Positions 8,992 to 44,114 of a stretch of DNA of 55,567 nt are shown one piece after another. The notes under the pieces are model-generated. The model ran no database searches. It worked only from the letters and a program-made list of their open reading frames with translations, and was not told where the DNA came from. The DNA comes from Acidobacteriota bacterium. Lineage in GTDB: Bacteria > Acidobacteriota > Vicinamibacteria > Vicinamibacterales > UBA2999. The stretch lies in contig JANMUX010000521.1 of the NCBI GenBank assembly GCA_031392125.1, positions 1 through 55,567 on the forward strand, given 5' to 3'. Position 1 is the stretch's first letter; each line of letters begins with the position of its first letter. The position numbers were made by a program, and so were the translations under genes.

Positions 8992-9000
8992 GAACATACG

Positions 9001-9082
9001 GTCTTGAGGTCTTGAGGACTTGGGGTCTTGAAGACACCCCGAAAAAGCCCAAGACCCCAGGACCCCAAAACCCCAGGACCCC
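9001..9082 (+). repeat. Mirrored tandem octamer tract directly upstream of the serA start
   Basis: First half: gtcttgag, gtcttgag, gacttggg, gtcttgaa. Second half: C-rich mirror words gacacccc, (ca)agacccc, aggacccc, aaaacccc, aggacccc. ggggtcttg (9022-9030) is exactly complementary to caagacccc (9050-9058). Confidence 0.8.
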
Positions 9083-10318
9083 ATGAAGGTACTAATCGCT
9101 GATAAGTTCGAGAAATCCGGCCTTGAAGGTTTGAAAGCCGCCGGATGCGACGTGATCTTCCAGCCCGACGCTAATGGCGACACCCTCGCCGCGGCCATCA
9201 AGGACACCGGCGCGCCGGTGCTGGTCGTGCGCTCGACCAAGGTCACCGGGCCCATGCTCGACGCGGGTGCGTTGTCGCTGATCGTGCGGGCCGGGGCTGG
9301 TGTCAACACCATTGATGTGGCCGGCGCATCGGAGCGCGGCATTTACGTATCGAACTGTCCGGGCAAGAATTCCGTGGCGGTGGCGGAACTCACCATGGGG
9401 TTGATCCTCGCAGTGGATCGGCGCATTCCCGACAACGTGGCCGAGCTGCGCGCGGGCAAGTGGAACAAGAAAGAATTCTCGAAGGCGCGCGGCTTGCTGG
9501 GCCAGACGCTCGGCCTGATCGGCTTCGGCCATATTGGCCAGGAAGTGGCGACGCGCGCGCGCGCGTTTGGCATGCCCGTGCTGGTGTGGAGCCGCCGCTT
9601 CAGCGACGATCGTGCCGCTCGGGCCTCAGCCGAACAGGCGTTTGGCATCCATGTGGTGTCAAGCGCGGCGGAACTGGTGTCGAAGGCCGACATCCTGAGC
9701 GTCCACCTGGCCTTGACCAAGGAGACCCGTGGTTTCGTCGATGCCGAACTGCTGGCGCACGCCAAGCCGGGCGCCTATTTCATCAACACCGCTCGCGGTG
9801 AAGTGGTGGACTATGCAGCGCTCGAGGCGGCGGCCAAAGTGAAGGGTCTGCGGATTGGCTTGGACGTGTTCGCCAACGAGCCGGCCGATGCGACCGCCGA
9901 CTTCGCCGACACCCTGGTGACGCAGCCCAACGTCTACGGCACGCACCATATCGGCGCCTCGACCGATCAGGCGCAGGAGGCGATTGCCACCGAGACCGTG
10001 CGCATCATCACCACCTTCAAGGACACCGGTAAGGTGCCCAACGTGGTGAACCTCGCCAAGCTGACGCCGGCCACCCATATGCTGGTGGTGCGCCACCGCG
10101 ACAAGCCCGGCGTGCTCGCGCATGTGTTCGAGTACCTCAAAGTGGCGCGCCTCAACGTCCAGGAAACCGAGAACATTATTTTCGAAGGCGCCCAGGCCGC
10201 GGTCGCCCGGATCAATCTGGATGGTGCACCGTCTGCGCGCGCGCTCGACGCCATGCAGTCGGGCAACGCCGACATTCTCGATCTTCAACTCGTCAAACTC
10301 GGACAACCGGATAATTAG
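9083..10318 (+). CDS. serA: D-3-phosphoglycerate dehydrogenase with C-terminal ACT domain
   Basis: 2-hydroxyacid dehydrogenase fold, NAD site GLIGFGHIGQEVA, catalytic-region HIGAST, ACT-like C-terminus (LVVRHRDKPGVLAHVFEYL). Confidence 0.9.
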   Translation: MKVLIADKFEKSGLEGLKAAGCDVIFQPDANGDTLAAAIKDTGAPVLVVRSTKVTGPMLDAGALSLIVRAGAGVNTIDVAGASERGIYVSNCPGKNSVAVAELTMGLILAVDRRIPDNVAELRAGKWNKKEFSKARGLLGQTLGLIGFGHIGQEVATRARAFGMPVLVWSRRFSDDRAARASAEQAFGIHVVSSAAELVSKADILSVHLALTKETRGFVDAELLAHAKPGAYFINTARGEVVDYAALEAAAKVKGLRIGLDVFANEPADATADFADTLVTQPNVYGTHHIGASTDQAQEAIATETVRIITTFKDTGKVPNVVNLAKLTPATHMLVVRHRDKPGVLAHVFEYLKVARLNVQETENIIFEGAQAAVARINLDGAPSARALDAMQSGNADILDLQLVKLGQPDN

Positions 10319-15324: not shown

Positions 15325-15813
15325 TTACGCATCGCGGTGGTAGCGAATGACGTTGAACTCTTCATCCTGAGCGGGCGGCAGGAAGTGGGCCATGATCATG
15401 TCGAACTCCGCTTCCGACGTCCACGGCGTGCCCGGCGGCAGATGCTTGCTGCGCTGCTCGAGCTGACGCTTGCACAGGGCATCGGGTGCATCGATGAAGT
15501 GCAGTTCATGCTCAACGCCGGCCTGTTCGAACAGTTCGCGAAACCATGCTCGCTGGGCACGGGTGTTGCCGGGAAAGTCGAGCACGACTGAGGTGCCCAG
15601 GGTCAGCAGCGCACATACGTGCGGTCCGATTGCGCTGTTCAATCGCGCGGAGCACTTAAGGTAGCTGGGGACGTCAATGACTTCGCCCGGGAAGAGGCGG
15701 TCGAGCAGGTCGTCCTGGGTCAAGACGACCGCGCGCTCGCGCGCGGCCAATTCCTTCGCAAGGGTGGTTTTGCCGGCGGCCATCTTGCCGCAGAAGAAGA
15801 TCAACTTGGCCAT
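15325..15813 (-). CDS. P-loop kinase-like ATP-binding protein (AAA_33-like)
   Basis: Walker A FFCGKMAAGKTT at the N-terminus. 162 aa. Confidence 0.65.
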   Translation of the reverse strand: MAKLIFFCGKMAAGKTTLAKELAARERAVVLTQDDLLDRLFPGEVIDVPSYLKCSARLNSAIGPHVCALLTLGTSVVLDFPGNTRAQRAWFRELFEQAGVEHELHFIDAPDALCKRQLEQRSKHLPPGTPWTSEAEFDMIMAHFLPPAQDEEFNVIRYHRDA

Positions 15814-15816
15814 GGG

Positions 15817-15956
15817 CCGCAGATTGTGGCGATTACAAATACAGGCACAGATTAAGCGCAGATTTCCACAGATTCAAACGAGTCTCCAAATCGATCGTGC
15901 CTGGCGCCCGAAATCGGGTTGCAGAGAATCTATGCGAATCTGCGCCAAATCTGTGG
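15817..15956. promoter_or_regulatory. Dyad-symmetric array of phased 9-mers (SCRCAGATT / AATCTRYGS) in a divergent intergenic region
   Basis: Direct copies at 15817, 15845, 15856 and 15866. Inverted copies at 15927, 15937 and 15948. The three inner pairs share one symmetry centre (15900.5) with mirrored 11/10 and 10/11 nt spacing. Confidence 0.75.
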
Positions 15957-15987
15957 CTGAGTTTGGATTTGTGCTATCTGTGTCTAT

Positions 15988-16794
15988 GTGGCTGTCCTGA
16001 GACTGACGTCTGCGGCGGTAATCGTCTTGCTGGCTTCGAGCCCGGCGTCGGCGACTCGGGCCGACCTTGCACGCGCGCGCGCACTCTACAATCAGCGGCA
16101 GTTCGACGCCGCCATCGAGGCCGCCCTCGTGGCGCAGAAGACGCCTGCCACCCTGGACGCCGCCACCGTGGTGCTCGCTCGCGCCCACCTCGAGCGCTAC
16201 CGCGAGCGCGCCGACCCTGCAGACCTGTCGGCAGCCCGAGTGGCCTTGGGCACAGTTCGCTCGTCGGTGCTCGATGCGCGCGACAACATCGACTTCCTGA
16301 TGGCTCTCGGCGAAGCGCTGTTTTTTGAAGACGACTACGGCGCTGCGGCGCAACTGTTCGAGAGCGGACTCGACATCGCCATTGCCAGCGGCCCGGTGCC
16401 GGGTGAGGCGATGCTCGATTGGTGGGGCAGTGCGGTCGAGCGCCACGCCGACGGCCTGGGGCGGGACGAGCGCGCCACGGCATTTGGCCGCATGCGCGAC
16501 CGCATGGCTCGCGAACTGACCCGCAATCCTGGTTCCGCTGCCGCAGCGTATTGGGTGGCGGTCGCCACCCGGGGCTCCGGCGATGCCGCTGCCGCGTGGG
16601 ATGCCGCCATCGCCGGCTGGGTCCGCGCGCGCCTGGCCACCAGTCGCGCTGCCAACTTGCGGGCGGATCTCGACAAGCTGATGTTGCAGGGAATCATCCC
16701 TGACCGCGTCCGCCTGTTATCGCCCGACAAGCGCGCCCAGGCCGAATCCGACCTGCGCGCGGACTGGGCGGTGGTCAAGGAGAGATGGAAATAG
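15988..16794 (+). CDS. Secreted all-alpha (TPR-like) hypothetical protein
   Basis: GTG start. Signal-like AVLRLTSAAVIVLLASSPASA. G/C-rich third positions. No family recognised. Confidence 0.55.
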   Translation: MAVLRLTSAAVIVLLASSPASATRADLARARALYNQRQFDAAIEAALVAQKTPATLDAATVVLARAHLERYRERADPADLSAARVALGTVRSSVLDARDNIDFLMALGEALFFEDDYGAAAQLFESGLDIAIASGPVPGEAMLDWWGSAVERHADGLGRDERATAFGRMRDRMARELTRNPGSAAAAYWVAVATRGSGDAAAAWDAAIAGWVRARLATSRAANLRADLDKLMLQGIIPDRVRLLSPDKRAQAESDLRADWAVVKERWK

Positions 16795-16807
16795 GATGTG
16801 GAGGTCT

Positions 16808-16869
16808 GGTGATTTGGTGATTTTGAGATTTGGGAAAGCAATTTCTCGATTTTAGGATTTCGCGATTTT
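16808..16869 (+). repeat. Two triplets of GATTT spaced 8 nt apart, spanning the polA stop
   Basis: GATTT at 16811, 16819 and 16827, and at 16848, 16856 and 16864. The first two octamers are identical (ggtgattt). Confidence 0.8.
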
Positions 16870-44004: not shown

Positions 44005-44104
44005 GCCACAGGACACAGAAGACACAGAGTAGCTATTTTGGTTACTGGGATTCAACGGTAGCCTTTTCCAAGAATGGCTCTGTGTTCTCTGCGTCCTCTG
44101 AGGC
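44005..44104. repeat. Long imperfect inverted repeat (~100 nt stem-loop) in the glgC-eno spacer
   Basis: Outer arms gccacaggacacagaagacacagag (44005-44029) versus ctctgtgttctctgcgtcctctgaggc (44078-44104). About 20 of 25 positions are complementary with a 2-nt bulge by manual alignment. Inner arms agctattttgg / ccaagaatggc extend the stem. Confidence 0.65.
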
Positions 44105-44114
44105 TAACGTTCGT

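Follow-up and report, generated by a model that had tools for sequence, protein, structure and literature searches.

The inverted array of short repeats between two divergent genes in the window (the whole 55,567-nucleotide stretch analysed here) is best explained, at a probability of roughly 0.65, as a gene-less copy, either non-autonomous or decayed, of a family of repeat-armed elements of a Vicinamibacterales genus. Each arm is a module of three phased 10-11-bp AATCTGYG units, and full-length copies carry between their arms a gene for a GxxExxY protein of ~125 aa (PDDEXK_3, with a PD-(D/E)xK nuclease fold). The phased units would be recognition sites of the cognate GxxExxY protein, either on one face of the duplex or within a hairpin or cruciform formed by the arms, and that protein would maintain or spread the arrays. 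The probability given above includes these recognition and spreading steps. Taken separately, membership of the focal dyad in the GxxExxY-linked repeat family is very probable. Recognition of the arms by the cognate protein and mobility of the element family would each have about an even chance of being correct.

The first-pass annotation had described six phased 9-mers in dyad registration, and by reading the sequence and running a repeat finder we reproduced every coordinate, centre, spacing and complementarity of that description. Specifically, the left units as read on the plus strand, gcacagatt (15845), gcgcagatt (15856) and ccacagatt (15866), follow the pattern (G/C)C(A/G)CAGATT and are mirrored on the right by aatctatgc (15927), aatctgcgc (15937) and aatctgtgg (15948). 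All three unit pairs share a common centre at 15900.5. Read from left to right, the units start 11 and then 10 nt apart in the left arm, and 10 and then 11 nt apart in the right arm. Complementarity is 8/9, 9/9 and 7/9 from the outer to the inner pair, and a gap of 52 nt separates the arms. According to the repeat finder, each arm can be extended to 40 nt (15836-15875 and 15926-15965) with 80% complementarity. The AATCTGYGNNN units are not themselves palindromic, and pairing occurs only between whole arms. A seventh unit that had also been reported, ccgcagatt at 15817-15825, does lie 3 nt from the ATG of the kinase-like gene (15811-15813, minus strand), and beyond these six plus one we found extra degenerate units on both sides of the dyad (Table 1). 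Since the 52-nt core holds no ORF, we filed the focal copy as a gene-less derivative.

Table 1. Features of the focal spacer and of related arrays in the source genome (window coordinates unless a contig is named)
Feature	Position	Strand	Description
AAA_33 P-loop kinase-like gene	15325..15813	-	Pfam PF13671, E 1.2e-26
Start-proximal unit	15817..15825	-	minus-strand reading AATCTGCGG-ccc-ATG; plus strand ccgcagatt
Degenerate unit	15829..15834	-	AATCGC on the minus strand; between left arm and start-proximal unit
Left arm	15845..15874	-	three units 10 and 11 nt apart: AATCTGtgga AATCTGcgctt AATCTGtgc
Unique 52-nt core (hairpin loop)	15875..15926	.	no ORF, no nuclease-gene match
Right arm	15927..15956	+	AATCTAtgcg AATCTGcgcca AATCTGtgg
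Older array, 9-nt period	15967..15993	+	gatTTGTGct ATCTGTGtct ATGTGGCT; GTG start 15988 inside
Secreted 268-aa protein gene	15988..16794	+	no Pfam match; signal-peptide-like N-terminus
Array cluster	C333:6414-6516		upstream of Tat-signal aminotransferase gene
Array cluster	C516:20874-20940		upstream of alpha/beta hydrolase gene
Array cluster	C458:7203-7425		between the 3' ends of two convergent genes
CACAGAGGA dyads	C34, C48, C176, C243, C315, C322, C325, C381, C459, C487, C31		contigs of the source genome

The dyad stands out statistically. The window contains 10 copies of SCRCAGATT against an expectation of 2.13 +/- 1.61 (0 of 100 shuffles reach 10), and six of these ten are packed into 140 nt. 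Folded as single-stranded DNA, the segment 15830-15972 has an energy of -33.1 kcal/mol (z -5.5), and folded as RNA it has an energy of -61.1 kcal/mol (z -6.7), values that none of 200 shuffles equals in either case. The first-pass annotation had held that the array would look like a fortuitous palindrome if it were missing from orthologous spacers and its motif occurred nowhere else in the genome. A search of the genome and its relatives found arrays of the SCRCAGATT type at three further loci of the source genome as well as in relatives, and the orthologous spacers of G021, G011 and G005 carry the array. Nothing other than the short length of the unit speaks for a chance palindrome or a local slippage product without relatives, and given the shuffle results and the recurrence of the arm module at further loci and across over 25 genomes we consider the probability of such an origin to be negligible.

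The two divergent genes are flanked by polA and by a gene for a beta-lactamase-fold protein, which indicates that the context of the locus is chromosomal, and homologs of the window proteins carry Vicinamibacterales names. The start of the kinase-like gene is fixed by its P-loop, GKMAAGKTT at residues 8-16, and the GTG start of the right-hand gene falls within the last unit of the array that precedes it. The element fills the divergent spacer, and its outer units adjoin or contain both start codons. Consequently, each of the two genes must have its promoter and 5' end inside the element. A scan of the spacer predicted no sigma-70-like promoter. One weak idea is that the unit acts as the -10 box of leaderless mRNAs, as TAATCT at -13 to -8 fits the positions of TAnnnT only and nothing fits a -35 box.

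We then consider how the arrays are distributed in the source genome (G000; 4.77 Mb in 532 contigs, 89.5% completeness), of which the window is contig C251. Across this genome the 9-mer is not enriched, with 139 copies in 4.77 Mb that do not exceed the shuffles, and only its clusters stand out. These clusters are found at exactly four loci, which are the window and the three listed in Table 1. A layout in which the array abuts a start codon, AATCTGYGGC(N0-2)ATG/GTG, is present at C333 and C516 and at relatives' loci L016, L024, L053, L054, L060 and L117. By our own reading of the sequence, G000 has eight outer array ends, of which six either include a start or stop codon or come within 3 nt of one.

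Within the genus, AATCTG-N4-5-AATCTG pairs are present in 26 of 37 genomes at 0-105 per genome, a range that grows to 0-237 pairs when AATCKG is allowed; the reversed-pattern control gives 0-21 per genome and is near zero in most of the genus genomes. Outside the genus, in 80 other genomes of the order that include genera of the same family, pairs are no more frequent than background and their spacers appear random. Unit variants are species-specific and homogenised within a species, as exemplified by G004, which has almost only AATCTGCGTT[CT]. In G011 the arrays occupy many unrelated intergenic regions, either as dyads around a GC-rich hairpin core or as solo arms, and many of them directly adjoin stop or start codons. 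The dyad cores at loci L057, L059 and L060 of G011, and also at L071 and L085, contain a GC-rich hairpin module, cgttcgctggcggcgcttcgcgccgc ... gcccgcgagaaatgagtc ... gactcatttctcgcgggc. This module recurs in dyads of different unit types and looks like a separate repeat family nested in the arrays.

These results bear on the first suggestion made for this dyad, a cooperative operator for the two divergent genes. The phasing and the dyad on which that suggestion rested were borne out; a gene-specific operator was not, with arrays also found in convergent spacers and after stop codons. In its broader form this explanation would take the phased units as cooperative sites of a chromosomal regulator, for example of the OmpR/PhoB type, that controls the two divergent genes and a small regulon. 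Response regulators of the OmpR/PhoB type read 10-11-bp direct repeats, and the unit spacing of one helical turn, the position of arrays directly upstream of genes at C251, C333 and C516, the retention of the array in the orthologous spacers of G021, G011 and G005, and the conservation of the TCTGTG block at the 15988 start in 12 species would all be congruent with such sites. Against this, arrays also occur in the convergent spacer at C458 and directly after stop codons, their number varies from 0 to 237 pairs per genome within a single genus, their variants are homogenised per species, and the genes downstream share no common functional theme. In addition, full-length copies enclose a nuclease gene, and orthologous sites in close relatives are empty and have an ordinary GAGG ribosome-binding site instead. 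The distribution over convergent spacers and post-stop sites, together with the 0-237 range, therefore argues against both a gene-specific operator and a small conserved regulon, and we consider a host operator improbable. The notion of phased sites for a DNA-binding protein may nevertheless be correct if the protein in question is the nuclease that the element family itself encodes.

Several more specific candidates were dropped. A DnaA box shares only the CCACA core with the unit and has the wrong position. A Pho-box or OmpR-type regulon and LytTR 9-mers (21-nt spacing) initially had some appeal because two proteins downstream of arrays have Tat or Sec signal peptides, and these were set aside in view of the arrays in convergent spacers and the huge and variable array numbers.

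The family to which we assign the focal dyad is defined by its full-length, gene-carrying copies. At three loci in related soil Acidobacteria (L063 on G020:C1, L064 on G020:C5 and L065 on G001:C185) the arms are 600-700 nt apart, and each locus consists of a left arm, a single ~125-aa GxxExxY ORF and a right arm. The enclosed ORF matches PF13366 PDDEXK_3 (E 2.7e-34) and TIGR04256 'GxxExxY protein' (E 1.3e-38), so these full-length copies link the arms to the gene. Next to L065 lies a further copy from which an internal part of the gene has been deleted. In L063 the right arm, AATCTGtgtA AATCTGcgtct AATCTGtggct, has the same 10-then-11 layout as both focal arms, and this common module indicates that the focal arms are copies of the element's terminal module that did not arise independently. 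AATCTG-type units also frame GxxExxY genes at relatives' loci L096, L097 and L103.

TIGR04256 genes are present in 35 of the 37 genus genomes at 0-8 per genome. Most of the 30 further GxxExxY loci that we inspected are flanked by inverted arrays of their own short tandem unit of 8-11 nt, and the units differ from copy to copy (CTCTGTGT, CTCCGTGN, CTTCGTGN, CTCCTGN, CTCGGCGTC, AATCGGTGTCT and AATCTGYGTCT). The outermost unit at these loci often terminates in GTGGC. When 34 proteins were placed in a maximum-likelihood tree, the nine whose genes have GATT-type units grouped in a single clade (support 100/99). Furthermore, all unit labels together can be explained on this tree by 10 changes; shuffled labels need 21.7 on average, and none of 200 shuffles is as low. 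Unit type and GxxExxY protein thus diverge together, a pattern of co-divergence and not of recognition, and joint inheritance of gene and arms as one piece would alone yield this tree pattern.

The state of the gene in the source genome fits a gene-less focal copy of this family. The only intact GxxExxY gene of G000, at C225:4615-4980, has arms of the CACAGAGGA/CTCTGTGTC type. On other contigs this type is represented by at least 12 dyads that lack a gene. These dyads have conserved arms and a conserved inner AAATGC/GCATTT stem, and their ~30-nt centre is non-homologous between copies. Such unrelated centres are unlike those of simple copy-and-paste repeats. An intact gene of the GATT clade, the clade that goes with AATCTG units, was not found in the G000 assembly, which is 89.5% complete. 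The matching gene is decayed in this genome: the C458 element retains the last ~57 nt of a GATT-clade gene, encoding GLLNFGRPSLEYR, and this remnant together with the start of the right arm aligns with G011:C13 over 121 nt at 82% identity. The ortholog of the C458 site, G011:C13:193-582, contains the intact gene. Given the completeness of the assembly, the AATCTG arrays of G000 look orphaned.

Comparison of orthologous sites revealed turnover of the arrays. At the C516 site, G046 and G050 lack the array and have a 29-nt spacer that contains an ordinary GAGG ribosome-binding site (ccgtgagagaatccgcccgaggtccccgATG). The same site is filled in G000 and G016 by AATCTG arrays ending in AATCTGtggccATG, and in G041 by five AATCGG units with a 23-nt period ending in AATCGGtggccATG. 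The filled and empty states indicate that arrays have been gained or lost between species. The difference of G000 and G016 from G041 further indicates that the type of unit varies at one orthologous site. In the filled species the last unit displaces the ribosome-binding site. The filled and empty sites align too loosely to define a target-site duplication; terminal arms are present. Closer reading of this site (G000 C516:20874-20945 compared with L121 and L122) shows a three-unit array upstream of a remnant of the GAGG site, ttgaggttc, and a single unit, AATCTGTGGCC, between that remnant and the ATG. This lone unit suggests that units are seemingly added singly as well as in arrays.

Orthologs of the focal site have also diverged. 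G021 keeps the three-unit left arm and has a different core, G005 keeps one arm, and in G011, where both arms are present, they are separated by two ordinary genes (VOC family and DUF2007-like). The kinase start in G011 is the GTG of AATCTGTGGCA. In all 12 genus species compared, no other part of the 5' region is as well conserved as the block at the 15988 start, TGTGyTAT-CTGTGTC-ATCTGTGGC with its 9-nt period, which also exceeds the following signal-peptide codons in conservation. Given this conservation throughout the genus, the array at the 15988 start looks co-opted, and the element as a whole would most likely be partly co-opted at the 5' ends of both flanking genes. The conservation is also a hint of some role for the host, which is left unaccounted for if the element is taken as purely selfish.

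A further alternative is that the dyad acts at the level of RNA, with transcribed arms that form a long stem for RNase III-like processing or for stabilisation or termination of transcripts, in which case the small ORFs would be cargo. REP elements and 23S rRNA intervening sequences act via such RNA stems. The RNA hairpin predicted for the focal dyad is energetically plausible, a four-helix-bundle gene at C42 (TIGR02436) is framed by analogous arrays, and many arrays lie just after stop codons or between convergent genes. However, the focal dyad lies between divergent genes, so that a transcript spanning both arms is not expected, and many arrays are solo arms that are unable to pair. No intrinsic terminator or terminator-like T-run was predicted in the spacer, and Rfam has no family that matches the dyad, the sole hit being a chance match to radC outside the dyad at 19.1 bits against a threshold of 40. 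Finally, in the 12 CACAGAGGA dyads the differences between arms are mostly uncompensated, which in this small sample argues against selection for pairing and favours recognition of individual units. We therefore consider an RNA-level element unlikely.

The framing at C42 deserves separate mention. At C42:1262-1855 of G000, inverted GGGCTTAG/CCCCTAGG arrays enclose the TIGR02436 gene, whose family originally bore the name '23S rRNA intervening sequence protein'. Such framing is thus found in a second small-protein family, one unrelated to GxxExxY. Since the arrays there are similar and consist of a different unit, the arms may be made by a third party that is not the cargo of the element. More generally, Tandem Repeats Finder combined with a pairing script detected ~70 inverted pairs of 7-11-nt arrays in G000, with many unit types.

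Within the preferred reading of a gene-less copy of a GxxExxY-linked element, the tie between the gene and the number of arrays is loose, with a median of 28 pairs in the 19 genomes that have an intact GATT-clade gene versus 16 in the 18 genomes without one. No matching gene was found in G018 (137 pairs) and G013 (237 pairs), and the GATT-clade gene is present without arrays in G008 and G045. G009, G019 and G022, which are the three genomes that lack a complete GxxExxY gene, have at most one pair each. Absences in such comparisons are unreliable because the metagenome assemblies are fragmented and the genes are often at contig ends.

The GxxExxY protein was analysed by modelling the C225 protein of G000 with 43 relatives. 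The predicted structure (pLDDT 88, pTM 0.82) most closely resembles lambda exonuclease, LHK-Exo and SSO0001, a Cas4 protein, at a probability of 1.00, an E-value of about 3e-3 and a query TM-score of about 0.53. On the basis of these matches to the predicted model, the C225 protein is a minimal PD-(D/E)xK core. It has the catalytic D...E-x-K motif, to which LDF...VEVK corresponds in the GATT-clade protein of G011, and E28 (of GxxExxY), D67 and K79 are invariant in the alignment. A sequence search of the PDB found no solved structure, and a search for relatives recovered more than 4,000. PF13366 is listed with the function 'Unknown' in a published survey (PMC3424549). The literature on GxxExxY, PDDEXK_3 and PF13366 that we found consists of incidental mentions only, and no description of the gene-plus-arms design was found in it.

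Four known systems resemble this arrangement in part. Intervening sequences of 23S rRNA can carry a four-helix-bundle ORF, and they share with the elements described here a small ORF between inverted long-stem arms; the TIGR02436 gene of G000 has such arms. Unlike these sequences, the focal element is outside an rRNA gene, occupies a divergent spacer and lacks an ORF. IS21, Tn7 and Mu are transposons whose ends contain several subterminal binding sites. The focal family is like such ends and like MITEs in having terminal inverted arms of repeated short sites and an internally deleted, gene-less derivative (L065), and it is unlike them in that there is no transposase of a known family, no definable target-site duplication at C516, and no relationship among the cores of gene-less copies.

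Of the published systems, REPIN/RAYT and Ssn/SRM come nearest. A closer likeness in gene and copy structure is with REPIN/RAYT systems (PMC3116915, PMC3733652), where a low- or single-copy gene is also flanked by inverted copies of its own short repeat, and where tens to hundreds of gene-less inverted doublets are also found in intergenic DNA. Both systems further show a repeat type specific to each gene lineage, long-term vertical inheritance and widely varying copy number. They differ in the protein, a PD-(D/E)xK-fold protein (PF13366) here and a Y1 HUH transposase there. They also differ in the repeat, with arms of tandem non-palindromic 8-11-nt units here in contrast to a 20-40-nt palindrome with a GTAG/CGTC head in REPINs, and in the doublet centres, which here are non-homologous between copies. 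The fourth system is that of Ssn, a nuclease of the GIY-YIG type whose substrate is single-stranded DNA and whose gene has its own hairpin repeat of ~30 nt on either side (PMC11893778). As in Ssn/SRM/NTS (PMC11893778), a small gene from a large nuclease superfamily here has a repeat on both sides, and Ssn recognises its repeat. As with SRM, the repeat is dispersed around genes in hundreds of copies and its variants differ between species (PMC11893778). In contrast to the GIY-YIG nuclease and single hairpin of that system, the present one combines a GxxExxY (PF13366) gene with a phased array.

A more far-reaching joint reading, which we put forward tentatively and regard as rather less likely to be true than false, would take GxxExxY proteins as sequence-specific PD-(D/E)xK nucleases that read phased 8-11-bp units. 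With their arms they would then form a third, undescribed and persistent partnership of nuclease and repeat besides REPIN/RAYT and Ssn/SRM, with arrays that in this genus are homogenised across the genome and co-opted as the immediate 5' boundary of host genes. If this reading were true, start codons would lie next to or inside a last unit that replaces the ordinary ribosome-binding site. PF13366/GxxExxY is a very large family, and a cognate phased motif offers a direct assay with protein and arm oligonucleotides. The impact of these repeats on the host is apparent at the present locus, where intergenic spacers are filled up to the start codons, and at one orthologous site, where a ribosome-binding site is replaced; the array at the 15988 start is more conserved than the adjacent coding sequence. 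For annotation, dyads like the focal one should not be taken as gene-specific operators.

Additional arrays were observed elsewhere in the window. Immediately after the stop codon of the 15988 gene, at 16807-16868, there are three copies of TGGTGATT followed by GATTT-phased units that run into the 3' end of polA. The 15988 gene is thus bracketed by arrays of two different unit types. Dyads of the unit type present there, TGATTTGG/CCAAATCA, also occur on C12, C203 and C302. At 9000-9083, inverted 8-nt arrays, with four copies of GGTCTTGA facing 4.5 copies of CCCAAGAC, have the architecture of the focal dyad with a different unit, and the last unit runs into the ATG of serA (ccccaggaccccATG); about ten further pairs of this unit are found elsewhere in G000. 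Lastly, a CACAGAG-type dyad at 44005-44105 (gccacaggacacagaagacacagag ... ctctgtgttctctgcgtcctctgaggc) has the unit type that frames the GxxExxY gene on C225.
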